38,744 bases of DNA from a virus (Duplodnaviria > Heunggongvirae > Uroviricota > Caudoviricetes). The notes beneath the pieces were generated by a model. It was not told where the DNA came from and searched no databases. It saw nothing but the letters and a program-made list of their open reading frames with translations. The position numbers and the translations under genes are program-made. Positions 1,369 to 37,240 of this stretch are shown here, piece after piece. Numbering within the stretch: position 1 is the stretch's first letter; every line of letters begins with the position of its first letter. The stretch lies in the IMG/VR virus record IMGVR_UViG_2703719354_000025. One strand, given 5' to 3'.

Positions 1369-1444
1369 GCCGATATAGCTCAGTTGGTAGAGCAGCGCAT
1401 TCGTAATGCGAAGGTCGTAGGTTCGACTCCTATTATCGGCACCA
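1369..1444 (+). tRNA. thrW: tRNA-Thr (anticodon CGT)
   Basis: 76-nt sequence GCCGATATAGCTCAGTTGGTAGAGCAGCGCATTCGTAATGCGAAGGTCGTAGGTTCGACTCCTATTATCGGCACCA with acceptor stem, D-loop, anticodon loop CATTCGTAATG (anticodon CGU), T-arm GGTTCGACTCC and 3' ACCA. Confidence 0.95.
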
Positions 1445-5060: not shown

Positions 5061-5423
5061 TTAATGACCTGCTGCGCGGAGTTTTCCGTCAGGTTCACCG
5101 GCAAGAGTCAGTAATTGTCCCTGGTCTTCCTGCAGAATAGTCAGGCGACCACCGCGATTGACATACATCGGCGTTTCGGTGGTGTCTTCTTCGGAAATTT
5201 TCCCGCGGTTAGTCGGGCGAACATATGAGAGTTTGTGTTTGATTTTCACACGGTTCTCATCAAATGGTTCGATTTCCAGGTTGAGTGAGACCTTACCTTT
5301 GGTTTTCGTGTTCATCACACCGGAAGCGACTTCACTGAGAACTGCGCCGATTTTGGTTTCAAATACGCCGCCGTCCAGCTCCCCAATAAATGCCTGCACA
5401 TCAGTACTGCGTTCGCTAGCCAT
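5061..5423 (-). CDS. hypothetical phage protein (120 aa)
   Basis: Start set at the internal ATG at 5423 (MASERSTDVQAF...), preceded by AGGAG. The longer ORF-track version (to 5741) runs through a hairpin and non-coding-looking sequence. Confidence 0.7.
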   Translation of the reverse strand: MASERSTDVQAFIGELDGGVFETKIGAVLSEVASGVMNTKTKGKVSLNLEIEPFDENRVKIKHKLSYVRPTNRGKISEEDTTETPMYVNRGGRLTILQEDQGQLLTLAGEPDGKLRAAGH

Positions 5424-5473
5424 TTTTCTGCTCCTAATCATATCGACCCTGCAAGGTCGGTTGGTTTCTCCAC

Positions 5474-5558
5474 AAAACAGAGAAGAACACCTGCGGTGGC
5501 AGCCGCCCGGATGGATTGGGTTATGAGCCCGTCGTCCGGTGATGTTCTTCTCTGTTTT
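5474..5558. repeat. 16-bp perfect inverted repeat (long-loop hairpin) in the 5' UTR of the leftward operon
   Basis: AAAACAGAGAAGAACA at 5474-5489 and its exact reverse complement TGTTCTTCTCTGTTTT at 5543-5558, separated by 53 nt of GC-rich loop. Confidence 0.6.
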
Positions 5559-5861
5559 GTAAAAAGAGCGGTACCAGCCGGAAGCAAGTGTACAAACTGG
5601 TACCGCGAGGACTACACACAGCATAAAGTTGTGGTGCCGGGTGCCTCCCGGTGCCTGGCGAAAGTTGCACACCAGGCGGGTGGGTATCCACAGAAGGTCG
5701 ACTGTCAGCCTCAACCTTAACCCGCGTGCGCTGAGCCGCATTCACCACAACGCTAAGGATTCTCTCTGGTTGAAAATACTTAGCTGTTATGTGCCTGTCT
5801 TTTCACCACTTCAGGCTCGGTGGTATCTTGGTGTTTTCATATAGCCAAGAAGGAAATAGTT

Positions 5862-6053
5862 ATGACCAAAGAAGAAAAAATTCTTTATTTATTCCAACTA
5901 TCGGTTAAGACTCACACTGCATATCAGACTGCTGCCATGACATCAGATAAAAATTACAGTACGTCAGAAAACCCGATAGACGACATAAGCAAGCTTTACG
6001 ATAAGTTCGAAGCACTACTCGATAAAAAGTTTGCTGAGGCTGGGCTTGAGTGA
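5862..6053 (+). CDS. small AT-rich hypothetical protein (63 aa), rightward-transcribed inside the leftward early region
   Basis: ATG at 5862 with RBS AAGGAAA 6 nt upstream; plausible upstream promoter (TTCACC ... TGgTATCTT). Acidic, Lys-rich translation MTKEEKILYLFQLSVKTHTAYQ... Confidence 0.45.
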   Translation: MTKEEKILYLFQLSVKTHTAYQTAAMTSDKNYSTSENPIDDISKLYDKFEALLDKKFAEAGLE

Positions 6054-6221
6054 TTGTTGAATAATCGACAAAACCCAACTTAAATTTTCGTCAGTGGGCT
6101 CGATGCCATGTGCGGTGAGCTCACTTTTCAAAACTCCAAGCAATTCAGAGCTGATTTTCAATATATCTGCTTGATTTCTAACTATTCCCACTTTTTCCTC
6201 CCTTGGTCTACGCGCGGTCAT
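6015..6221 (-). CDS. hypothetical protein (68 aa), first ORF downstream of the PL-like promoter
   Basis: ORF about 170 nt downstream of the leftward promoter; weak RBS; overlaps the 3' end of the convergent 5862-6053 ORF by 39 nt. Confidence 0.35.
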   Translation of the reverse strand: MTARRPREEKVGIVRNQADILKISSELLGVLKSELTAHGIEPTDENLSWVLSIIQQSLKPSLSKLFIE

Positions 6222-23727: not shown

Positions 23728-24208
23728 TGTTCAGCAGCCCACGGAGATGCGCTTTAACCGCGCCCGTGTCCGGCGGGCGTTTGTCACGATTGGGCAGCGT
23801 CATATGCGTGATGCCCGTCGGCTGGTGATGCGCCGTGCGCGGTCGGCACCGGGTGAAAACCCCGGTTATCAGACCGGACGCCTGGCTCGTTCGATTGGTT
23901 ATATGGTGCCGAGAGCCAGTAAAAAGCGAGCCGGTTTTATGACACGCATTGCCCCTAACCAGCGCAACGGGAGGGGGAACCGGATGATCTCTGGTGACTT
24001 CTATCCGGCGTTTCTGTTTTTTGGTGTCCGGGGAGGAGCAAAACGTCGTCGTAGTCATCATCGTGGTGCATCCGGTGGCAGCGGCTGGCGACTGGCTCCA
24101 CGTAATAACTTCATGGTGGAAACTCTTGAAAAGAACCGCAGCTGGACACGCTATTTTCTGGCGCGGGAATTGCGTAAATCACTGAAGCCGGAGCGACGAC
24201 ACAGATGA
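23702..24208 (+). CDS. HK97 gp10-like tail component
   Basis: 168 aa basic protein in the head-tail joining gene block. Confidence 0.65.
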   Translation: MATPFLHVDVQQPTEMRFNRARVRRAFVTIGQRHMRDARRLVMRRARSAPGENPGYQTGRLARSIGYMVPRASKKRAGFMTRIAPNQRNGRGNRMISGDFYPAFLFFGVRGGAKRRRSHHRGASGGSGWRLAPRNNFMVETLEKNRSWTRYFLARELRKSLKPERRHR

Positions 24209-24765
24209 AACTGACGCCTGTTATTGCTGCACTGCGTGCCCGCTGTCCGTATTTTGAAAACCGGGTTGCAGGCGCGGCCCAGTTCAAAAATCTGCCGGAG
24301 GTCGGAAAGCTGAAACTCCCGGCGGCATATGTTGTACCGGGTGATGATTCTCCGGGAGAAAACAAAAGCCAGACCGACTACTGGCAGGAGCTGAAAGAGG
24401 GTTTCTCCGTGGTTGTCATACTGAGTAACGGGCGTGATGAGCGCGGTCAGTTTGCCTCGTATGATGTGGTGGACGATGTCCGGCAGATGCTCTTTAAGGC
24501 TCTGCTGGGCTGGAACCCGGAGGCGTGCGGTAACCCGATTACCTATGACGGCGGCACGCTGCTGGATCTGAATCGTCATGAGCTGATTTATCAGTTCGAT
24601 TTTTCGGTCATCAGCGAGCTGACTGAAGACGATACCCGCCAGCAGGATGATCTGAACAGTCTGGATGAACTGCAAACGCTGGCGATTGATGTTGATTATC
24701 TCGAGCCCGGTAACGGGCCTGACGGCGATATCGAACATCACACCGAAATAACCCTTCCTTCCTGA
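24205..24765 (+). CDS. tail completion / tail terminator-like protein
   Basis: 186 aa, last gene before the sheath; ATGA overlap with the upstream gene. Confidence 0.6.
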   Translation: MKLTPVIAALRARCPYFENRVAGAAQFKNLPEVGKLKLPAAYVVPGDDSPGENKSQTDYWQELKEGFSVVVILSNGRDERGQFASYDVVDDVRQMLFKALLGWNPEACGNPITYDGGTLLDLNRHELIYQFDFSVISELTEDDTRQQDDLNSLDELQTLAIDVDYLEPGNGPDGDIEHHTEITLPS

Positions 24766-24773
24766 GGATCCTC

Positions 24774-24944
24774 ATGTTTGTCAAACCTGTTAAAGGGCGG
24801 TCAGTGCCTGACCCTGCCCGCGGCGACCTTTTGCCCGCCGAAGGGCGAAATGTTGACGAGAACAACTACTGGCTGCGCCGTGAAGCAGCGGGTGATATCC
24901 GGTGCGTGAATAAAAAGGTGAATACCGATGACGATAAGCTTTAA
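24774..24944 (+). CDS. possible small ORF (56 aa) overlapping the sheath gene start
   Basis: ATG at 24774, 8 bp after the upstream stop; translation MFVKPVKGRSVPDPARGDLLPAEGRNVDENNYWLRREAAGDIRCVNKKVNTDDDKL; not in the ORF track because it is under 60 aa. Confidence 0.3.
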   Translation: MFVKPVKGRSVPDPARGDLLPAEGRNVDENNYWLRREAAGDIRCVNKKVNTDDDKL

Positions 24945-26424
24945 CACCATTCCGTCGAATACGCTGGTTCCGTTGTTTTATGCGGAAATGGATAACCAGG
25001 CGGCGAATACTGCACAGGACAGCGGAGCATCGCTGCTGATTGGTCATGCCAATAACGGTGCAGAGATTGTTGCCAACAGTCTGGTACTGATGCCGTCGGC
25101 AGACTATGCACGCCAGATTTGTGGTGCGGGAAGTCAGCTGGCGCGTATGGTCGAGGCTTATCGCCAGACTGACCCGTTTGGCGAGCTGTATGTGATTGCC
25201 GTTCCTGAATCCACAGGCGCGGCGGCAACAGTTACGCTGACGGTGACCGGGGCAGCAACCGAAACCGGCACGGTGAATGTTTATGTGGGACGTACCCGCG
25301 TGCAGGCACCGGTGACCAACGGCGATAACGTCGCGACGATTGCCAGCAGTATCAAAGATGCCATCAATGCCGTTCCGGCCCTGCCGTTTACGGCCTCATC
25401 TTCGGCTGGTGTGGTTACACTGACCGCTCGCCATAAGGGGCTTTGCGGGAATGAAATTCCTGTCAGCCTCAATTACTACGGCTTCGGTGGGGGCGAAGTG
25501 CTGCCAGCGGGCGTACAGATTGCCGTGGCGACGGGGACCGCCGGAACGGGCGCTCCGGTTCTCACCGGCGCGGTGGCTGCAATGGCGGATGAGCCGTTTG
25601 ATTATATCGGTCTGCCGTTCAACGACACGGCCTCTGTTAACACGCTGGTGACCGAGATGAACGATACCAGCGGTCGCTGGAGCTATGCGCGTCAGCTGTA
25701 TGGTCATGTGTATACGGCAAAGGCCGGCACACTGTCAGAACTGGTGAACGCAGGTGACCAGTTTAACCAGCAGCACATCACCCTGGCGGGGTACGAAAAA
25801 GAGACCCAGACGCCTGCCGACGAGCTGGCAGCCAGCCGTACCGCCCGCGCAGCGGTGTTTATCCGCAACGATCCGGCACGTCCCACGCAGACCGGTGAGA
25901 TGGTGGGTATGCTGCCTGCGCCGAAGGGGAAACGGTTCACGATGACCGAACAACAGACCCTGCTGTCTCATGGCGTGGCAACGGCGTATGTCGAAAGCGG
26001 GGTACTGCGCATTCAGCGTGATGTCACCACGTACAGGAAAAACGCTTACGGGGTTGCGGATAACAGCTACCTCGACAGTGAGACACTGCATACCAGCGCG
26101 TATGTACTGCGCAAACTGAAATCCGTCATTACCAGTAAGTACGGGCGTCACAAGCTTGCCAGTGACGGTACCCGCTTTGGTCCCGGTCAGGCGATTGTCA
26201 CCCCGGCGGTGATCAAAGGGGAACTGCTGGCAACCTACCGTCAGCTTGAGCGTGCGGGGATCGTGGAAAACTACGAACTGTTTAAGCAGTACCTGGTTGT
26301 GGAGCGTGATGCCAGCGATCCGAACCGCCTGAACACGCTGTTCCCGCCTGACTATGTTAACCAGTTGCGTGTCTTTGCCGTGGTTAACCAGTTCCGTCTT
26401 CAGTATTCAGAGGAGTCTGCATAA
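24928..26424 (+). CDS. tail sheath protein (Mu gpL-like)
   Basis: 498 aa; size and sequence typical of Mu-like contractile sheath; followed by tube, chaperone and tape measure. Confidence 0.9.
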   Translation: MTISFNTIPSNTLVPLFYAEMDNQAANTAQDSGASLLIGHANNGAEIVANSLVLMPSADYARQICGAGSQLARMVEAYRQTDPFGELYVIAVPESTGAAATVTLTVTGAATETGTVNVYVGRTRVQAPVTNGDNVATIASSIKDAINAVPALPFTASSSAGVVTLTARHKGLCGNEIPVSLNYYGFGGGEVLPAGVQIAVATGTAGTGAPVLTGAVAAMADEPFDYIGLPFNDTASVNTLVTEMNDTSGRWSYARQLYGHVYTAKAGTLSELVNAGDQFNQQHITLAGYEKETQTPADELAASRTARAAVFIRNDPARPTQTGEMVGMLPAPKGKRFTMTEQQTLLSHGVATAYVESGVLRIQRDVTTYRKNAYGVADNSYLDSETLHTSAYVLRKLKSVITSKYGRHKLASDGTRFGPGQAIVTPAVIKGELLATYRQLERAGIVENYELFKQYLVVERDASDPNRLNTLFPPDYVNQLRVFAVVNQFRLQYSEESA

Positions 26425-26780
26425 TGGCCCGTATCGGGGGAACCTGTTATTTCAAAATTGACGGTCAGCAGCTATCGCTGACCGGCGGCATTGAGGTGCC
26501 CATGAACAGGACGGTCAATGATGACATCATCGGCCTGGACGGTTCAGTGGACCGCAAGGAAACTCACCGTGCGCCCTATGTCAAAGGGACCTTCAAGGTG
26601 CCGAAGAATTTTCCGGTGAGCAAAATCACCTCGTCTGATGAGATGACCATCACTGCCGAGCTGGCGAACGGTCAGGTCTATGTACTGTCGTCTGCCTGGC
26701 TGCACGGCGAAGCGAACCATAATGCCGAAGAAGGCACGGTTGATCTTGAGTTCCACGGTGAAGAAGGGGATTACCAGTGA
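26424..26780 (+). CDS. tail tube protein (Mu gpM-like)
   Basis: 118 aa; TAATG overlap with the sheath stop. Confidence 0.8.
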   Translation: MARIGGTCYFKIDGQQLSLTGGIEVPMNRTVNDDIIGLDGSVDRKETHRAPYVKGTFKVPKNFPVSKITSSDEMTITAELANGQVYVLSSAWLHGEANHNAEEGTVDLEFHGEEGDYQ

Positions 26781-27100
26781 TTGAGCTTGTACTTAAAAAA
26801 CCGATCATCGCCCACAAAGAAACACTGCATGTGCTGGAAATACGTGAGCCTACGTATGACGAGATTGAGGCGCTGGGGTTCCCTTTCTCTGTTTCACCTG
26901 ATGGTGGTATGAAAATGGACAGTCAGGTAGCGCTGAAATATATCCCGCTTCTGGCCGGGATCCCGCGCTCGTCTGCAGCGCAGATGACGAAGCTGGATAT
27001 TTTCAAGGCAGGCATGATTGTAATGCGTTTTTTTACCGGCTTGGAGACGGAAGAGACCTCCGGAAGCGATTCTACAATGTCGCGTGGTTCTGGAAATTAA
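26777..27100 (+). CDS. tail assembly chaperone (G-like), frame-0 product
   Basis: 107 aa directly upstream of the tape measure gene. Confidence 0.75.
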   Translation: MIELVLKKPIIAHKETLHVLEIREPTYDEIEALGFPFSVSPDGGMKMDSQVALKYIPLLAGIPRSSAAQMTKLDIFKAGMIVMRFFTGLETEETSGSDSTMSRGSGN

Positions 27101-27189
27101 ACCCCCTTGAACTTCGCCGGACGGCTATTTCCCACTTTGCTGATCTGGAGGCAGAGGCTGTCCGTATAAATGAGGAGATGAAGCATGGC
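27028..27189 (+). other. candidate programmed -1 frameshift site and extension (GT-like product)
   Basis: Slippery heptamer T_TTT_TTT at 27028-27034 in frame 0 of the chaperone. The -1 frame is open from there to TGA at 27187-27189 (...FFYRLGDGRDLRKRFYNVAWFWKLNPLELRRTAISHFADLEAEAVRINEEMKHG), overlapping the tape-measure start. Confidence 0.5.
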
Positions 27190-29092
27190 TGATAATTTTC
27201 AGCTGAAAGCCATCATCACCGCTGTTGACAGGCTGTCCGGCCCGCTTAAAGGTATGCAGCGTCAGCTTAAGGGATTTCAGAAAGAAGTCTCCAGCCTTGC
27301 TCTGGGCGCTGCCGGGGCGGGTACTGCAATAATGGGGGCACTGGCACTCCCTGTAAAATCAGCCATCACCCTTGAATCGAAGATGGCTGATGTCCGCAAA
27401 GTGGTGGACGGTCTGGATACGCCGGATGCGTTTAAGGCCATGACGGAGCAGGTACGCGCTTTGTCTACTGAGCTTCCCATGTCTGCAGACGGGATCGCGG
27501 AAATTGTGGCGGCTGGCGGTCAGGCCGGGATTGCACGTGATGAACTGATGCAGTTTGCCACTGATGCGGTGAAGATGGGCGTGGCCTTTGATACCACGGC
27601 TGAAGAGTCCGGGCAGATGATGGCCCAGTGGCGTACTGCGTTTAATATGACGCAGGATGAAGTGGCCGGGCTGGCTGACAAAATCAACTACCTTGGTAAT
27701 ACCGGCCCGGCGAACGCGAAGAAAATCTCCGATATTGTTACGCGTATTGGTCCTTTAGGTGGTGTTGCAGGTGTGGCTTCCGGCGAAATCGCGGCAATGG
27801 GGGCAACCATTGCCGGGATGGGCGTGGAGTCAGAAATTGCCGCCACAGGGATCAAGAACTTCATGATTTCCCTGACCGCGGGAAATTCTGCGACAAAATC
27901 GCAGAAACAGGCATTGCGTTTTCTGCGGATCAATCCGAAGAAATTAGCTGCTGATATGCAGAAAGATGCCCGGGGCACCATGCTGTCTGTACTGGATGCG
28001 ATGGCTAAAGTGCCTAAAGAAAAACAGGCAGCTGTGCTGAATGCCCTGTTCGGGAAAGAGTCTCTGGGCGCGATAGCACCTCTGCTGACTAACCTTGATT
28101 TGTTGCGTACCAACTTCAGGCGGGTTGCGGATTCCCAGCAGTATGGCAGTTCGATGCAGAAGGAATATGCTTCGAGGGCAGCGACGACGGAAAACCAGCT
28201 TTTACTTCTGCAAAATCAACTTGATGCCATTTCTTCCACGCTGGGGGAAACGTTTCTTCCTGAGGTTAATGATGGTCTTGAAGCGGTAAAACCGCTCCTT
28301 GAGGAAGTGAGAACGTTTGTCCGTGAAAACCCGGAGCTCGTTAAGACCATTGCTAAAATCGGTCTGGCTTTACTGACAGTGGGGGCCGCTGCAGGCTCTT
28401 TGTCCAGAATCATGAAAATTCTCGGCGGTGTGATGAATATGACGCCTGCTAAGGGGCTGATTGCTCTTCTGGTTGGTGGCGCTTACCTCATTATTGATAA
28501 TTGGGAAACCGTAGGCCCTGTCATAAAAAAAGTCTGGCACGTGGTGGATGAAACGGCGCAGGTGATGGGGGGATGGGAAACTGTTCTGAAAGCGATTGCC
28601 CTGTTTATGGCAACCAAATGGGTTGCTGACGTTACCAAATCCATTACCGCAGTGACCAGAGAGATGCGTACGCTGGGGAAGGTATCGGCAGAAACGGGAT
28701 TGATGGGGAAAGGCCGCGGCTTTATCGGGAAGGCCGGGGTATATGGTTTTTTGGGAACCCTGATGTATGAGCCGGTTAAAGATACTCTGGAAAGTGTTGT
28801 TCCTGAAGATACGGTTAACTGGCTGGATAATAAAGGGCTGTTTCTGGCTTCAGACTGGACGCCTTTTTTTGATCGTAAAGAGTACGAGCAGTATCAGGCC
28901 AGCCTGAGCCAGTACAAACCCAATGTTCCGCTGTTGAATCCATCTTCTTCCATGACACAGCACAGCGAGCTGAAAGTCACGTTCGAGAATGCTCCGCCAG
29001 GTATGAAGATAATTGATGTACCGGGCAAAGCCGATCCCCTGATGAAAATCACGCACGATGTGGGGTATTCCCCTTTTCGTTTTCCACGATAA
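27185..29092 (+). CDS. tail tape measure protein
   Basis: 635 aa, Ala/Gly-rich helical protein with hydrophobic central segments, after the chaperone. Confidence 0.9.
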   Translation: MADNFQLKAIITAVDRLSGPLKGMQRQLKGFQKEVSSLALGAAGAGTAIMGALALPVKSAITLESKMADVRKVVDGLDTPDAFKAMTEQVRALSTELPMSADGIAEIVAAGGQAGIARDELMQFATDAVKMGVAFDTTAEESGQMMAQWRTAFNMTQDEVAGLADKINYLGNTGPANAKKISDIVTRIGPLGGVAGVASGEIAAMGATIAGMGVESEIAATGIKNFMISLTAGNSATKSQKQALRFLRINPKKLAADMQKDARGTMLSVLDAMAKVPKEKQAAVLNALFGKESLGAIAPLLTNLDLLRTNFRRVADSQQYGSSMQKEYASRAATTENQLLLLQNQLDAISSTLGETFLPEVNDGLEAVKPLLEEVRTFVRENPELVKTIAKIGLALLTVGAAAGSLSRIMKILGGVMNMTPAKGLIALLVGGAYLIIDNWETVGPVIKKVWHVVDETAQVMGGWETVLKAIALFMATKWVADVTKSITAVTREMRTLGKVSAETGLMGKGRGFIGKAGVYGFLGTLMYEPVKDTLESVVPEDTVNWLDNKGLFLASDWTPFFDRKEYEQYQASLSQYKPNVPLLNPSSSMTQHSELKVTFENAPPGMKIIDVPGKADPLMKITHDVGYSPFRFPR

Positions 29093-29116
29093 CGCAGTCC
29101 TTTTTGAGGTCAGTCT

Positions 29117-30493
29117 ATGGATTTATCCTCATTTCCCACCCGACCTTCATTACTTTCGTCGTCTTCAGGCTGGCGTGACAGACTTCAGGACGCGTCATTT
29201 CGCGGTGTGCCGTTTAAGGTTGAAGAAGAAAGTGCGGGAACCGGTCGCCGTGTGGAAACACATGAATACCCGAACCGCGACAAGCCCTATACCGAAGATC
29301 TGGGAAAAGTCACTTTCCGCCCGTCCATCACAGCTTATGTAGTGGGAGATGACTGCTTTGACCAGCGCGATCGCCTGATTGAAGCGCTGAATAAACCCGG
29401 TCCCGGCACGCTTGTCCACCCGACATACGGTGAGCTGAAAGTCTGTGTTGACGGGGAAGTTCGGGTCAGCACATCGAAAAGTGAAGGGCGTATTGTCCGC
29501 TTTGACCTGAAGTTTGTCGAAGCAGGAGAACTCTCTTACCCCACATCAGGTGCGGCGACGGCGCAGACGCTGATGTCATCCTGTTCTGCACTGGATGACT
29601 GCATCAGTGACAGCTTCAGCGGTTTCAGTATCGATGGTGTGGCGGATTTCGTGCAGAACGACGTTATCGGTAATGCCAGCACAATGCTTGGGTATGTTTC
29701 TGATGCGATGAAAGTGGTGGATTCTGCCGTATCGGATGCCGCCAGGCTGTTGCAGGGGGATATCTCGGTACTTCTGCCGCCGCCATCGTCAGGCAAAAAT
29801 TTCGTTGAGCAGGTGCAGAAAATGTGGCGTACCGGGAAACGCCTTTATGGTAACGCCAGCGACCTGGTCACCATGATCAAAACGCTTTCCGGTGTCAGCC
29901 TCGGCAGCGATCTGCAACCGCGCGGCGTCTGGAAAACGGACAGTAAAACCACCGCCACGGCGACGCAGCAGCGTAACGTGGTTGCCAGCACCCTTCGTAC
30001 GACCGCAATCAGCGAAGCGGCGTATGCCGTCACCCGATTGCCTGCGCCAACAACTTCCGCGGTGATGCAGAATTCCGCAGTGGGGCAGGCAACAACACCC
30101 GCGCAGAGCACTGGCTGGCCTTCCGTCACGCATCCGGCACTGAACAATGCACCGGCGGTGAAAAACACGGTTGACCTGCCGACGTGGGAAGAACTGACTG
30201 ACATTCGCGACACACTGAATACGGCAATTGATAAGGAGTTGTCCCGTACAACCAGTGATGCGCTGTTTCTGGCGCTGCGCCGGGTGAAAGCAGATCTGAA
30301 TGCGGATATCAACACGCGCCTTGAACAGTCTGCACGGATCATTCAGCGCACACCGGATGAGGTTTTACCCGCGCTGGTGCTGGCGGCGACCTGGTTTGAT
30401 AACGCGGCGCGTGACGCGGACATTATCCGGCGTAATGCCATTACGCATCCCGGCTTTGTGCCGGTGATCCCTCTGAAGGTGCCAGTGCAATGA
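29117..30493 (+). CDS. DNA circularisation protein (Mu gpN-like)
   Basis: 458 aa, position and Mu-like order. Confidence 0.75.
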   Translation: MDLSSFPTRPSLLSSSSGWRDRLQDASFRGVPFKVEEESAGTGRRVETHEYPNRDKPYTEDLGKVTFRPSITAYVVGDDCFDQRDRLIEALNKPGPGTLVHPTYGELKVCVDGEVRVSTSKSEGRIVRFDLKFVEAGELSYPTSGAATAQTLMSSCSALDDCISDSFSGFSIDGVADFVQNDVIGNASTMLGYVSDAMKVVDSAVSDAARLLQGDISVLLPPPSSGKNFVEQVQKMWRTGKRLYGNASDLVTMIKTLSGVSLGSDLQPRGVWKTDSKTTATATQQRNVVASTLRTTAISEAAYAVTRLPAPTTSAVMQNSAVGQATTPAQSTGWPSVTHPALNNAPAVKNTVDLPTWEELTDIRDTLNTAIDKELSRTTSDALFLALRRVKADLNADINTRLEQSARIIQRTPDEVLPALVLAATWFDNAARDADIIRRNAITHPGFVPVIPLKVPVQ

Positions 30494-31569
30494 ACGACAA
30501 TGTCACGCTACGGGTAAATGGCCGGGAGTGGAATGGCTGGACATCGGTGCGCATCGGTGCCGGTATTGAACGGCTGGCGCGGGATTTCAGTGTGGAGATC
30601 ACTCGCCAGTGGCCGGGAGATGAGGGTATCACCACGCTTCAGCCGCGCATTAAAAACGGTTCAAAAGTGGAAGTGCTGATTGGTGATGAGCTGGTGATCA
30701 CCGGCTGGGTGGAGGCGACTCCCGTTCGTTACGATGCCCGTTCGGTCAGCACCGGTATTGCCGGACGTAGTCTGACGGCTGACCTGATTGACTGTGCAGC
30801 CGAACCGACACAGTTTAACGGACGCTCGCTGGTGCAGATTGCGCAGGCGCTTGCTGCGCCTTTCGGCATTGAGGTGGTGAACAGCGGTGCGCCATCGGGT
30901 GTTATTCCTGATGTTCAGCCTGATCACGGTGAAACGGTGATTGAGGTAATCAACAAAATACTCGGTCAGCAGCAGGCGCTGGCTTACGACGACCCGCACG
31001 GCAGGCTGGTGATTGGCGGTATTGGCTCAACGCGGGCACATACCGCGCTGGTACTTGGGGAAAACATCCTTTCCTGTGATACGGAGAAGAGTATCCGGGA
31101 GCGGTTTTCTGTTTACCAGGTGGCGGGGCAGCGTGCCGGAAACGACGATGATTTCGGTGAGGCCACCACCACCGCGCTGCGGGCCCGCACAGAGGACGCA
31201 TTTATTGCCCGTTACCGTCCGATGTATATCAGGCAGACAGGGCAGGCTACGGGGGCAGGCTGTATTGCCCGTGCGGACTTTGAAGCCCGACAACGGGCGG
31301 CGCGGACGGATGAAACCACCTATGTGGTGCAGGGCTGGCGACAGGGTAACGGTACGCTGTGGCAGCCCAACCAGCGGGTGATTGTCTTCGATCCGGTCTG
31401 TGGTTTCGACAATACCGAACTGCTTGTCTCGGAAGTCACGTTTACTCAGGACCAGAACGGCACCCTGACGGAAATCCGTGTCGGCCCGCCTGATGCTTAT
31501 CTGCCTGAACCCGAAGCTCCCGGCGCGCGGAAAAAGAAAAAAGCCAGAGTACAGGAGGACCCGTTCTGA
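30490..31569 (+). CDS. baseplate hub protein (Mu gpP-like)
   Basis: 359 aa, position and Mu-like order. Confidence 0.75.
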   Translation: MNDNVTLRVNGREWNGWTSVRIGAGIERLARDFSVEITRQWPGDEGITTLQPRIKNGSKVEVLIGDELVITGWVEATPVRYDARSVSTGIAGRSLTADLIDCAAEPTQFNGRSLVQIAQALAAPFGIEVVNSGAPSGVIPDVQPDHGETVIEVINKILGQQQALAYDDPHGRLVIGGIGSTRAHTALVLGENILSCDTEKSIRERFSVYQVAGQRAGNDDDFGEATTTALRARTEDAFIARYRPMYIRQTGQATGAGCIARADFEARQRAARTDETTYVVQGWRQGNGTLWQPNQRVIVFDPVCGFDNTELLVSEVTFTQDQNGTLTEIRVGPPDAYLPEPEAPGARKKKKARVQEDPF

Positions 31570-32117
31570 TGAGAACGATTGAAGCCATGCAGCGACAACT
31601 TCTCGGCCTGATTGGGCGGGCAGTGGTGAAAAGCATCAGTGCCGCCACGAAATGCCAGACCGTGGATGTGTCCCTGATTGCCGGTGAACCCAAAGCCGGG
31701 GTTGAACATCTTGAACCCTATGGTTTTACCGCAAGGGCAAACAGCGGTGCGGAAGCGGTGGTGTTGTTTCCGGATGGCGACCGTTCTCATGCGGTGGTTG
31801 TTACGGTGTCGGACCGGCGCTACCGCCTGAAAGGGCTGCAGACGGGTGAGGTGGCTGTCTATGACGATCAGGGGCAGTCCGTGACGCTGACCCGGGAGGG
31901 GATCGTGGTGGACGGTGCAGGTAAAACGATCACGTTTCGCAATTCACCTAAAGCACGTTTTGAAATGGACCTGGAAGTGACCGGACAGGTGAAAGACCTG
32001 TGCGACTCCGGCGGCACCACCATGTCAGCGATGCGGCTTGCCTATAACGGGCATCGTCACAGAGAGAACGGGCAGGGCAGTAACACCGACAAACCTGATA
32101 AAGCGATGGAGGCATGA
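31569..32117 (+). CDS. baseplate assembly protein V / spike (Mu gp45-like)
   Basis: 182 aa, position and Mu-like order. Confidence 0.75.
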   Translation: MRTIEAMQRQLLGLIGRAVVKSISAATKCQTVDVSLIAGEPKAGVEHLEPYGFTARANSGAEAVVLFPDGDRSHAVVVTVSDRRYRLKGLQTGEVAVYDDQGQSVTLTREGIVVDGAGKTITFRNSPKARFEMDLEVTGQVKDLCDSGGTTMSAMRLAYNGHRHRENGQGSNTDKPDKAMEA

Positions 32118-32542
32118 TGGAACTGTGGCTGACGGTGAACGGTAAACGCACCTGCGCCAGCGCACCGCTGGATCCGCTGACCCGCGCCGTGGTGATTTCC
32201 CTGTTTACCTGGCGGCGGGCGGAGCCTGATGACAACGCCGACGTCCCGATGGGATGGTGGGGGGATACCTGGCCTGCGGTACAGAATGACCGTTACGGCT
32301 CCCGACTGTGGCTGCTTCAGCGCAGCAAACTGACCAATCAGCTGGTGCAGACGGTAAGGGGGTATATCCGCGAATGCCTGCAATGGATGATTGATGACGG
32401 CGTGGTGTCCCGTATTGATCTGGATATCCGCCGTACCGGGATTAATGAACTGGGTAACAGTATCACTCTCTGGCGTCGTGACGGACCGGTAATGATTTCT
32501 TTTGATGATCTGTGGAGTGCGATAACGCATGGCGGACAGTGA
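32114..32542 (+). CDS. baseplate protein, GP46 family
   Basis: 142 aa, position and Mu-like order. Confidence 0.75.
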   Translation: MMELWLTVNGKRTCASAPLDPLTRAVVISLFTWRRAEPDDNADVPMGWWGDTWPAVQNDRYGSRLWLLQRSKLTNQLVQTVRGYIRECLQWMIDDGVVSRIDLDIRRTGINELGNSITLWRRDGPVMISFDDLWSAITHGGQ

Positions 32543-33587
32543 ATTTCAGCGCCCGACGCTGGCAGAAAATATCAGTATGCTCCGTAACGATTTATTCGCC
32601 AGGCTGGACGTCAGCAACACGCTCCGGCGCATGGATGAAGACGTGCGGGCAAAGGTGTATGCGGCGGCGCTGCATACGGTCTACGGGTACATCGATTATC
32701 TGGCAATGAATATGCTGCCTGACCTGTGCGATGAGTCCTGGCTGGCGCGACATGCTGCGATGAAACGGTGTCCGCGCAAGGGGGCCACGGCTGCCAGCGG
32801 GTATATGCGCTGGGAAGGTGTCAGCGATGGCCTGAAGGTGACCGCCGGGAGCGTGATTCAGCGCGATGACCTGGTTCAGTACACGGCAACTGCTGATGCA
32901 ACCAGCTCCGGTGGTGTCCTGCGCGTGCCGATCACTTGCTCAAGTGCAGGCGCGGTCGGTAACGCTGACGACGGTACGGCATTAATCCTGGTCACGCCGG
33001 TGAATGGTCTGCCGTCTTCCGGTGTTGCAGATACCCTGACTGGCGGATTCGATACTGAAGATCTGGAAACGTGGCGCGCCCGCGTCATTGAGCGGTATTA
33101 CTGGACGCCGCAGGGCGGGGCTGACGGGGACTATGTCGTCTGGGCTAAAGAAGTGCCCGGCATTACCCGCGCATGGACATACCGTCACTGGATGGGAACG
33201 GGAACTGTCGGTGTGATGATTGCCAGCAGTGACCTGATTAATCCCATTCCGGAAGAATCAACGGAAACGGCGGCAAGACAACATATCGAGCCACTGGCCC
33301 CGGTGGCAGGCTCTGATTTGTATGTGTTCAGGCCGGTGGCACATACGGTGGATTTTCATATCCGTGTGACGCCGGACACACCGGAAATACGGGCTGCCAT
33401 CACCGCGGAGTTGCGTTCGTTCCTGCTGCGTGATGGTTATCCGCAGGGAGAACTGAAGGTATCGCGTATCAGTGAGGCGATTTCCGGTGCGAACGGGGAA
33501 TACAGCCATCAGTTGTTTGCACCGGCAGACAATATCTCCATTGCAAAAAATGAACTGGCGGTACTGGGGACGATTTCATGGACGTGA
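32529..33587 (+). CDS. baseplate J-like protein (Mu gp47-like)
   Basis: 352 aa, position and Mu-like order. Confidence 0.8.
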
Positions 33588-35266: not shown

Positions 35267-35445
35267 TGAGCGATATTTATGCAGTCGTACAAAATGGTGT
35301 CGTTACAAATCTTGTTGTATGGGATGGTAAGTCAGAGTTTAAGCCAGAAAAAGCGGATATAGTTAAATGTGTTGGAGATGTTGGTATTGGCTGGTCATAT
35401 GACGGTAAAAAATTCATCAAGCCTGAAGATAAAACCGCGCAATAG
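35266..35445 (+). CDS. small protein downstream of the tail fiber (59 aa)
   Basis: ATG at 35266 overlaps the fiber stop (TAATG); too short for a typical tail fiber assembly protein. Confidence 0.4.
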   Translation: MSDIYAVVQNGVVTNLVVWDGKSEFKPEKADIVKCVGDVGIGWSYDGKKFIKPEDKTAQ

Positions 35446-35456
35446 CGCGGTTTTAT

Positions 35457-36476
35457 TTATTTTACTGCTAAAATTCGTTTTCTTAGCATCAGCTCTAAAG
35501 GCTCCTCAACTAATTTATAAAGTATGATTGAGACTATGGTTATTATAACAAGGAGCGCTATTAAATAGAGTGGTCCGGGGTTATGTCCAAAGATTTTAAA
35601 GCAAAATAATATAATGGGTTGATGAATTAAATAAAAAATAAATGATGATTTCCCTAATAGCTCTAGGGTTTTTGAACTGAGGATAGTATGAATGACTCCA
35701 TTTCTTAGATAGATGCATGAAGTAAAGAATATTACCATGGGGAGTAAATAATATAACGAATAACGTAGACTATTATTTATGTTGTTGCTATAATATATAG
35801 CTATTAGCAGAGGTAATAGTGAAATTAAAAACAAAAGGCTGTCGACTGTCTGCTGTCGGCTGTTTTTCCAGCAAGCGTAAATAATCATGCCGCAAATAAA
35901 TTCTACCAAGCGGCTTACTGGGAATATATAATATAACCAGTGATTAAGTTCTTCTGTTTGTATAATTTTTAAAAAATATATAGTTAATAGTAGAGTTATA
36001 ATTGATATTGCAGTGATTACTTTCTTTGTAATTGATGTATAAATCAACGGAATAAACATTAAATAAAAAAACAGCTCATCAGACAAAGACCATGATACAC
36101 CATTTAATGAGAAGTAGTAATCCTCCTTTGGTATCCAACTTTGCATTAATAAAATATTTGTTAAGGTTTTTGAAAAATCAAAGTTCTTTAAGTGAATGGT
36201 TAGTAAAATAAATGGCATGGCTAATAATAGATGCATTGGAACAATTCTTGCCAATCTTAAAAGAATAAACTGTCTTTTACTTGTTACTTCATTTTTTAGC
36301 TTGTCTTCATATGAATATGAAAGAATGAAGCCAGATAAAATAAAGAAAAAGGAAACGCCAATAAATCCCTGGGAAAACATTTCTTTTACAAAAACACCAA
36401 AATAGTCTGTATTTAAATGGCATAAATAAACCATTAATGCAGCTATAAATCTGAGTCCTGTTAAGTGGCGAAGCAT
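35457..36476 (-). CDS. acyltransferase family 3 membrane protein (O-antigen/LPS acetyltransferase-like)
   Basis: Polytopic membrane protein with the acyltransferase-3 N-terminal pattern (RHLTGLRFIAALMVYLCHL...); start set at the ATG at 36476 with GAGG RBS (the ORF-track start at 36506 is TTG). Very AT-rich. Confidence 0.8.
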   Translation of the reverse strand: MLRHLTGLRFIAALMVYLCHLNTDYFGVFVKEMFSQGFIGVSFFFILSGFILSYSYEDKLKNEVTSKRQFILLRLARIVPMHLLLAMPFILLTIHLKNFDFSKTLTNILLMQSWIPKEDYYFSLNGVSWSLSDELFFYLMFIPLIYTSITKKVITAISIITLLLTIYFLKIIQTEELNHWLYYIFPVSRLVEFICGMIIYACWKNSRQQTVDSLLFLISLLPLLIAIYYSNNINNSLRYSLYYLLPMVIFFTSCIYLRNGVIHTILSSKTLELLGKSSFIFYLIHQPIILFCFKIFGHNPGPLYLIALLVIITIVSIILYKLVEEPLELMLRKRILAVK

Positions 36477-37212
36477 CAATAACCTCTTGTTATGAAGATA
36501 AAGCAATTCAAAAGAGGCATTTTATGACTGTAGGGGATTGGTGTCTATATGAATGAGTAATCTGGTTTTTAAAATCTTCTTTAATTACAAAATAAACCTT
36601 TCTTAGGCTATAGATTTGTGGCTGTAACACTGTGTGTCCACGACATTGAGACATCCTTCCGCTTTGCTATAGATGTGGAATTCAGGATCAAGCGATATCG
36701 GACTCATCCTCAGCACCACCCGGTTAATCTGGATAACGGGAGAAGGGAAGCGCTGCCAGAAGATGATGATGGTTACAGTTCTGCACTGGCTATTCTGCAC
36801 TGGCTATATTCGTGGTGATCACTTACATAATTAATGACGCCAGGAATACGGAGTTTGATGATTGCCTGGTGATGTGAGAAAAAACTCATACACACAAAGC
36901 TTTGAACTGGATTGCAAGGCTTTGTGCTATTCGATAGCACGAGTTTGAATGAAAATCAGCCGTTATCGATTTTACGTATTTTTGTATGAGAGGATTTTTA
37001 CCTCCTCCCACCGATCCTCCATAACTTTACGACACTGTCTCTAGGACTGCTATGTGCCAAGAGCGGAATTTTCTAATATTATGCTGCATTCGTTTAAGGG
37101 GAGCAGATCAGCTAACGACTCCTACGTCCTGGGGAAAGGTCACATATGCTAAACAGCAGCTCAGCAAAGAGAAGAGCGAATTTGGTAACGGGAAACCGTT
37201 ATGATATGAATA

Positions 37213-37240
37213 AGGCTCCCAATGGGAGCCTTATTTTTTG
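37213..37240 (+). terminator. rho-independent terminator hairpin
   Basis: AAGGCTCCC-AATG-GGAGCCTT followed by ATTTTTTGA on the plus strand; lies about 40 bp beyond the stop of the minus-strand small gene but has no T-tract in that orientation. Confidence 0.6.

Follow-up and report, generated by a model that had tools for sequence, protein, structure and literature searches.

A perfect inverted repeat in an SfV-like prophage is the closing helix of a predicted three-way-junction RNA widespread in enteric prophages

The perfect inverted repeat at positions 5472-5560 of the stretch of viral DNA analyzed here (38,744 nt, hereafter the window) pairs as the closing helix, P1, of an RNA structure that is specified by the minus strand, is conserved, and has spread as a module among prophages of Enterobacterales. 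Judged from sequence comparison, the element appears to represent a widespread, unannotated family of three-way-junction RNAs in the early and late transcripts of enteric prophages, and its functional core seems to be the enclosed hairpins P2 and P3 and not the repeat. We propose, with about an even chance of being right, that the repeat is P1 of a three-way junction of ~100 nt in the early left operon and that the P2/P3 core is a tRNA-like small RNA excised from the transcript.

Results

The inverted repeat and its setting

The initial annotation had described a 16-bp perfect inverted repeat with a 53-nt loop in the leader of the leftward early operon. The arms, AAAACAGAGAAGAACA at 5474-5489 and its exact reverse complement at 5543-5558, are indeed spaced by 53 nt, and the coordinates proved exact, while the perfect match in fact extends to 18 bp (5472-5489 with 5543-5560). 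When G·U pairs and one unpaired base are admitted, the helix reaches ~25 pairs, joining 5467-5491 with 5541-5565. An origin by chance had been considered unlikely, and this is borne out because the repeat is the sole perfect one of at least 14 bp with a loop of up to 100 nt in the 38.7-kb window, and none of at least 14 bp arose in 100 first-order Markov shuffles of the window. The only other perfect short-loop inverted repeats of 12-13 bp in the window, at 35429-35456 and 37209-37235, are probably terminator hairpins. RNA fold prediction, the first of the checks that had been proposed, gave -51.2 kcal/mol for the minus strand (z = -7.6), a stability equaled by none of 200 shuffled sequences; the fold of the plus strand is also stable (-50.5 kcal/mol, z = -6.9).

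The window is an SfV-like prophage. A search with 481 nt surrounding the repeat gave a match of 100% identity in an E. coli chromosome and matches of 97-99% identity in the phages SfV and vB_EcoM-720R4. The features surrounding the repeat are collected in Table 1. The repeat had been placed downstream of a PL-like promoter and about 50 nt upstream of the RBS of the 120-aa gene: the order is right, but the promoter is ~840 nt away, with a short ORF and the STnc100 match in between, and the base of the stem is really ~36 nt from the AGGAG. The product of the short, 68-aa ORF is possibly an N-like protein; its N-terminus is arginine-rich (MTARRPREEK...), and the 98-aa orf33 occupies the counterpart position in SfV. 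STnc100 is a prophage-associated sRNA family that has been reported in both early and late phage regions. Its match stops at 5559, beside the hairpin, which lies outside the model match, and the terminator hairpin 5606-5568 is the terminal hairpin at the 3' end of the STnc100 alignment. Two ORFs that run across the STnc100 match, 5061-5741 on the minus strand and 5496-5720 on the plus strand, are probably non-genic. Elsewhere in the window, a tRNA gene at 1369-1441 (plus strand, 71.8 bits) has the anticodon loop UUCGUAA, which identifies it as tRNA-Thr(CGU); it is probably the host thrW attachment site, in which case the left end of the window would be chromosomal DNA at the prophage junction.

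Table 1. Features of the early left operon and parts of the RNA, with positions in the window
Feature	Coordinates	Strand	Details
cI-like repressor gene	7140-6466	minus	
pL-like promoter	6426-6399	minus	11 of 12 consensus positions
68-aa ORF	6015-6221	minus	between the pL-like promoter and STnc100
STnc100 (RF02076) sRNA match	5559-5781	minus	Rfam; 48.5 bits, gathering score 47
Intrinsic terminator	5561-5606	minus	10-bp stem 5606-5568, GCGGUACCAG/CUGGUACCGC; 19-nt loop; UCUUUUU at 5567-5561
Three-way-junction hairpin	5565-5467	minus	
P1, 5' strand	5541-5565	minus	5560-5541 is ACAAAACAGAGAAGAACAUC, including the right arm 5543-5558; MFE fold
P2, near-invariant hairpin	5507-5539	minus	CCGGA/UCCGG, C, GA/UC, C, then GGG-CUCAUAA-CCC
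P3, variable hairpin	5493-5506	minus	GCGG-CUGCCA-CCGC
P1, 3' strand	5467-5491	minus	5491-5472 is GGUGUUCUUCUCUGUUUUGU, including the left arm 5474-5489
Conserved 3' flank	5462-5471	minus	GGAGAAACCA; family consensus GGAGAAAC(U/C)AAC
P4, small downstream hairpin	5442-5461	minus	ACCGACC-UUGCAG-GGUCGAU
120-aa yfdP-like gene	5061-5435	minus	AGGAG at 5435-5431, ATG at 5423-5421; annotated yfdP in matching E. coli genomes

Two of the identities that had been suggested for the repeat could be set aside at this level. An early terminator (tL-like) or attenuator is hardly credible: a very stable hairpin located in the leader would suit such a role, but the bases next to the stem are GGAGAAACCAAC when the minus strand is read and AAAAAGAG when the plus strand is read, with no U-run on either. 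A terminator scan did not have the P1 hairpin among its calls, while the adjacent hairpin 5606-5568 with its UCUUUUU does fit the definition. Because the U-run is absent and the true terminator is the hairpin directly upstream, this reading was dropped. A nut-like element would be expected to combine a conserved, CGCUCUUUAACAA-like boxA with a short boxB hairpin downstream of it bearing a GNRA-like or A-rich loop; no boxB-type hairpin was found, and the promoter lies at the distance given above. The segment CGCUCUUUUUACAA (5557-5570, minus strand) resembles the boxA consensus and is simply the 3' half of the terminator together with its U-run. Relatives carry CGUCCUUUUUAC, CACCUUUUUUAC, GCAUUUUUUUAC, and others in its place, and, since CGCUCUUUUUACAA is therefore not conserved, a nut site is unsupported. 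The nut sites of the mEp phages (PMC11893012) were also considered and belong to an unrelated, non-lambdoid group.

Parts of the RNA and covariation among relatives

The predicted RNA consists of P1, which encloses P2 and P3, and is followed by a conserved 3' flank and P4. P1 comprises 20 Watson-Crick or G·U pairs and 5 U·G or U-A pairs. The latter arise where the U-run of the upstream terminator (5565-5561) can lengthen P1 by pairing in the fold with GGAGA at 5471-5467. This extension showed zero double changes in the alignment of 24 variants and may not be real. The tip of P2, GGG-CUCAUAA-CCC, spans 5530-5518, with the loop at 5527-5521 and CAU at 5525-5523. P3 is replaced in some relatives by longer hairpins. 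P4 lies between the junction and the RBS, and its stem differs widely among relatives, whereas the loop reads KGCAG in most of them. Three further structural proposals were rejected: kissing loops between P3 and P4 through UGCA or CUGC-GCAG, for which only 2-4 nt are complementary in most variants, with no covariation; a K-turn in P2, for which the bulge size and G·A pairs, by inspection, do not fit; and the interior pairing of the RNAalifold consensus (29-31:37-39 and 40-43:60-63), which shows little covariation. The P2 model was preferred to the RNAalifold interior, as the closing helix of P2 shows covariation in each of the three architectures described below.

Conservation in related prophages, another check that had been proposed, was assessed with an alignment of 24 non-identical relatives from E. 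coli, Shigella, Salmonella, Klebsiella, and other contigs, and the structure was found to be kept and to covary across them. The proposed pairing accounts for 95.7% of the cells, a figure that drops to 44-53% if the 3' partners slide by 1-3 columns, and eight pairs show changes on both sides, a level reached in 0 of 500 shuffles. P1, with 25 pairs and 96% of its cells paired, contributes five of the eight; examples of compensation are 16:91 (G-C to C-G), 11:96 (A-U to C-G), and 19:88 (A-U to G-C), and a C·C mismatch occurs at 18:89 in about half of the variants. The closing helix of P2 appears as CCGGA/UCCGG, CCGGG/CCCGG, CCAGG/CCUGG, CCUGA/UCAGG, ACGGA/UCCGU, and CGCA/UGCG, the last three of them in types other than that of the window, and its pair 33:57 is GC in 11 variants, AU in 9, and GU in 2. 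The members of the alignment are closely related, and part of the covariation signal is shared ancestry, so that the shuffle statistics exaggerate how independent the changes are; more weight belongs to the slid-partner control and to the existence of three independent P1 sequences.

The pairing is a property of one strand. G·U cells number 112 in the minus sense and 9 in the plus sense, and the fraction of paired cells falls from 95.7% to 84.7% when the plus sense is read; in the window itself the G·U pairs at U5542·G5490 and in the lower part of P1 are valid for the minus-sense RNA only, and with R1, a covariance model built from this alignment, the window reaches 116 bits for the minus strand as against 42 for the plus strand. 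A protein-binding DNA palindrome, which had been offered as a further possibility, is contradicted by this asymmetry. The perfect pairing in the window is atypical of the family, since most relatives have G·U or G-C where the window has A-U, as at pair 23:84, where the majority of relatives carry G·U or G-C. Imperfect repeats that nevertheless keep the RNA pairing indicate that the DNA palindrome is not the selected feature.

We consider it very nearly excluded that the repeat works as a DNA palindrome, that is, as an operator, recombination site, or cruciform, or that it is a functionless remnant, either a decayed tRNA gene or a mobile repeat. The perfection of the 18-bp repeat in the window and the mosaic joints nearby would agree with such origins, but the repeats of relatives are imperfect in such a way that the RNA pairs on one strand only, and covariation is present. 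The many dispersed copies in varied contexts that mark MITE, ERIC, or REP sequences were not found: the element occurs once in the window and once per locus, in a constant prophage context unlike the dispersal of MITEs, and a core that is near-invariant across genera speaks against a lack of function. Among the identities first suggested, an RNA processing site or structured RNA is favored: P1 covaries, and its ~25 bp would suffice for RNase III.

Conserved core and distribution

The arms had been described as flanking a GC-rich loop. They do flank it, but it is the loop that proved to be the conserved and information-rich part, and the arms are not. The weakest BLAST matches, which come from Klebsiella, Pantoea, and some E. 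coli phages, are confined to 5504-5540, within the loop. The core GACGGGCUCAUAAYCCAAUCCA occurs exactly in at least 120 IMG/VR viral contigs, and with four positions set to N it is found in ~25 species from at least 14 genera of Enterobacterales. Matches to the core in other phyla were rejected as chance occurrences in coding sequence, their flanks having been judged by eye. The contig labeled Chryseobacterium sp. 18061 bears a typical Enterobacterales element of type A (defined below), with enterobacterial flanks that suggest contamination or mislabeling in assembly. Among 5426 complete E. coli genomes, 2864 possess the element, at a median of one place and always at yfdP/ymfH-type prophage positions, and other carriers include Shiga-toxin phages, serotype-converting Shigella phages, Salmonella ST64B, and Klebsiella phages.

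The P2/P3 core is combined with three quite different P1 helices, all of which fold as three-way junctions. Type A comprises the window, SfV, SfII, SfIV, mEp460, cdtI, Stx2a and Stx2c phages, ST64B, phiNP, and LLS. In most copies, the terminator with its U-run is followed by P1 of ~25 bp, P2, and P3, the last being short or carrying a longer insert, and beyond P3 the 3' side continues with GGAGAAAC(U/C)AAC and usually P4; there is no conserved CCA. Type C is found in Pantoea dispersa, a Pantoea MAG, and Pantoea phage PA-1; Pantoea copies lie at ~2647-2741 of L152, ~4880-4977 of L168, and ~2461-2563 of L006. Here the terminator precedes a long P1 whose sequence is unrelated (CCACACAAUACCAAAGGCGC...), whereas P2 is the same and a P3 is present. 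The PA-1 copy lies between a gene for a 204-aa “class II holin” and the lysis genes; that gene sits at the usual position of the Q gene.

Type B occurs in lambdoid phages of Klebsiella and Raoultella, between Q and the lysis genes and directly behind a tRNA array. Its layout is ...CCA-GAUAAU-GGCCUG-A-[P2]-G-[P3, 6 bp]-NN-CAGGCC-RCCA, a unit of ~71 nt that is unannotated (L005, ~2470-2545 on the minus strand, L010, L016, L161, and others) and that, in the copies inspected, follows the tRNA genes after a 6-nt spacer. Both RCCA and U(-1) are present in 15 of 15 unique contexts, and downstream homology stops right after CCA, giving way to at least four unrelated sequence families. The 6-bp P1 and 6-bp P3 would together make a stack of 12 bp. 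The combination that marks a candidate RNase P substrate, an RCCA-ended stem, a coaxial stack of ~12 bp, and U at -1, was found in the type B relatives. Klebsiella phage 2 LV-2017 has an STnc100 match (81 bits) upstream of the tRNAs in addition to a type B copy, so that the order of STnc100 followed by the element is retained there. Model R1 recovers types B and C, both of which were absent from its training set, with E-values of 1e-4 to 4e-8.

The element is also mobile with respect to its neighbors. The mEp460, cdtI, and Stx2c phages share exactly 5380-5606, and the breakpoint at 5606 is the 5' base of the terminator hairpin; mEp460-type phages possess the hairpin and terminator with no STnc100 match. 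A second set of joints lies at ~5439-5460 in e14, SfII, and other genomes with different downstream genes; in e14 and SfII the homology starts at 5439-5447. From the joints at 5606 and ~5455, it follows that the terminator and junction (~5455-5606) move as one mosaic module. The downstream gene varies from copy to copy and may be yfdP, xisE, a lysis gene, or another.

Likeness to the initiator tRNA

The apical 14 nt of P2, CGGGCUCAUAACCC, reproduce exactly the anticodon stem-loop of tRNA-fMet from E. coli, including the three consecutive G-C pairs and CAU, and are carried on an extended, bulged stem. The tRNA-fMet sequence used for this comparison has a match of 100% in each of 5426 E. coli genomes, where it is annotated as tRNA-Met, with a median of four copies. 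The apical hairpin is predicted to present these three G-C pairs and the CUCAUAA loop in the manner of a tRNA-fMet anticodon arm. Where the loop reads CUCAUUA, in ST64B and Kp4866-6, CAU is retained. The copy in the defective K-12 prophage e14 is alone in losing CAU: its P1 is kept, the loop reads UUAAUAA, and P2 contains mismatches.

The resemblance ends at the arm. ARAGORN in its standard, relaxed, and mitochondrial D-armless modes found no tRNA with a CAU anticodon in type A or B, and the Rfam tRNA model gave no match at E ≤ 10 to any form; by both programs, a cloverleaf with D and T arms, as expected of a tRNA gene, is not present. A genuine but unusual tRNA was rejected on the negative result of ARAGORN in all modes. 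Given these negative results with ARAGORN and the Rfam tRNA model, we use “tRNA-like” only for the anticodon arm, the stem, and RCCA.

It is improbable, in our estimation, that the element mimics the initiator tRNA so as to engage, in trans or in cis, a factor recognizing the anticodon arm of tRNA-fMet, such as a toxin to be decoyed, MetRS, or the 30S P site. Among such toxins, VapC/MvpT cuts the anticodon loop of tRNA-fMet, whereas AtaT acetylates Met-tRNA-fMet; vapBC-type modules are common in Shigella, Salmonella, E. coli, and Klebsiella. The near-invariant identity of the three G-C pairs and the CUCAUAA loop to tRNA-fMet, the persistence of CAU where neighboring loop bases differ, and the acceptor-like stem with RCCA in type B would all be explained by mimicry. 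On the other hand, the loop-closing pair of type B is G·U, and an initiator-tRNA mimic of this kind is unreported in the literature searched. The identity over 13-14 nt to tRNA-fMet could be convergent or coincidental.

Novelty of the element and other candidates

Rfam 15 contains no family that matches type A or B at gathering scores or at E ≤ 10. A full-text literature search that included the literal core sequence returned only papers on tRNA-fMet, and the hairpin is neither mentioned in the literature on STnc100 nor described in that on yfdP, initiator-tRNA mimics, SfV nutL, or RNase III maps. Annotated records show either nothing at the site or ORFs across it, namely ymfH in K-12 e14 and “hypothetical protein” in mEp460 and others. 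In K-12 e14, the ymfH CDS (2497-2808 of locus L001) overlies both the hairpin copy and the STnc100-like region and is possibly a spurious ORF.

A processive antitermination or anti-Rho element, put-like or insulating, which would modify RNA polymerase once it has passed the upstream terminator, is a very improbable alternative. Its appeal lies in the location of the element, which is found in antiterminated operons, usually right after a terminator, and is syntenic with STnc100 in early and late contexts. Against it stand the lack of similarity to HK022 put, the negative results of R1 in the HK022 stretches and phi80, and the RCCA end and tRNA-array position of type B, which do not fit such a function. 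R1 had no match in HK022 24000-30000 and 27600-33000, stretches outside which putL and putR may lie. The related idea that STnc100 is a put-type antiterminator of HK022 was rejected, a cmscan of HK022 27600-30099 having yielded no STnc100 at E ≤ 0.1, and that stretch shares no Rfam family with the window. The M3 RNA of phi80, a non-tRNA RNase P substrate, was rejected as the same element: the record NC_021190 labels M3 as the oop homologue, at 36229-36288, and R1 has no match in phi80. A hammerhead or other ribozyme was likewise rejected: the CUGAUGA of type B is not conserved in type A, which has CGGACGA or CGGGCGA, and there is no Rfam ribozyme match.

Discussion

The same core occurs with a long P1, with an unrelated long P1, and with a short P1 that ends in RCCA, and the simplest explanation of this is that P2/P3 is a tRNA-like RNA that needs to be excised. 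RNase III accommodates ~22 bp of dsRNA (PMC6212723), and the ~25 bp of P1, as modeled, would provide largely uninterrupted dsRNA of that size. In types A and C, the P1 duplex would thus serve as a substrate of RNase III, and a cut there would free or expose the P2/P3 core. In the window, such a cut would part the STnc100 sRNA and its terminator from the yfdP read-through mRNA and would give the yfdP mRNA a new 5' end. In type B, RNase P, together with 3' trimming, would release the core, as is suggested by the tRNA spacing, the 6-bp stem, U(-1), RCCA, and the conservation boundary at CCA.

The main rival to the small-RNA reading is a purely cis-acting role as an element of the 5'-UTR, which we regard as rather unlikely. 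According to this rival, no small RNA is released, and the folded junction, together with GGAGAAAC and P4, sets mRNA stability or the translation of yfdP-type genes, for example, by protecting the 5' end, by keeping an AU-rich or U-rich tract out of reach of RNase E or Hfq, or by serving as the binding site of a repressor. The element is always upstream of the first gene in its operon segment, the conserved 3' flank and P4 stand between it and the RBS, and P1 is able to sequester the U-run, all of which would be natural in a UTR. The downstream genes, however, differ among copies, and type B ends at RCCA with unrelated sequence beyond, which fits better with a stand-alone RNA.

A bolder version of tRNA mimicry, to which we assign a similarly small likelihood as to mimicry in general, holds that the three-way junction is a minimal, D-arm-less mimic of the initiator tRNA, with the exact tRNA-fMet anticodon stem-loop on a lengthened helix and, in one form, an acceptor-like stem that terminates in RCCA; it would sequester a host factor that reads the initiator tRNA, as its decoy or sponge. 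Candidates for that factor are a VapC- or AtaT-type toxin, the 30S P site, and MetRS. If this were true, the mimic would be supplied by early as well as late transcripts, and the initiation of translation would be protected or reprogrammed while the phage develops.

If the excision of a tRNA-like small RNA is the right reading, a very common prophage sequence has been overlooked, often under spurious calls of “hypothetical protein” or ymfH; the early and late operons of lambdoid phages would be controlled through a further layer, of processing or tRNA mimicry; and there would be a concrete starting point for asking how the sRNA loci of prophages (STnc100/Pas) are parted from the mRNAs downstream. 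Even on a conservative view, R1 could seed an Rfam family and help clean up prophage annotation.

Several known systems bear comparison with the element. In the lambda N leader and in the T7 early region, RNase III hairpins stand between an upstream regulatory RNA and the next RBS. The present hairpin resembles the lambda N-leader site and T7 R1-R5 in being a long, near-perfect duplex in an early transcript ahead of an RBS, and its ~25 bp would suit RNase III (PMC6212723), although cleavage here is a prediction only; it differs from them in that P1 closes a three-way junction with a near-invariant inner hairpin and in that type B has the same core with no long duplex. The E. coli thrS operator is likewise a non-tRNA RNA that copies a tRNA anticodon stem-loop, but here it is the initiator tRNA that is mimicked, and neither metG nor a translation gene adjoins. 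Non-tRNA substrates of RNase P have been listed (PMC11143913), and with tRNA-like ones such as the C4 RNA precursor of phages P1 and P7, tmRNA, and the plant-virus TLS, type B shares the stem with RCCA and the tRNA spacing, while lacking a D arm, T-loop, and cloverleaf. Prophage sRNAs of the STnc100 (RF02076)/PasD kind occupy the same prophage loci, with STnc100 directly upstream, but the hairpin lies beyond the model match at 5559-5781. Finally, phage tRNAs counter anticodon nucleases, as T5 tRNA-Lys does against PARIS. The element is similar in being a phage RNA related to tRNA whose anticodon loop matches that of a toxin-targeted host tRNA, and it differs from T5 tRNA-Lys in being no functional tRNA gene.
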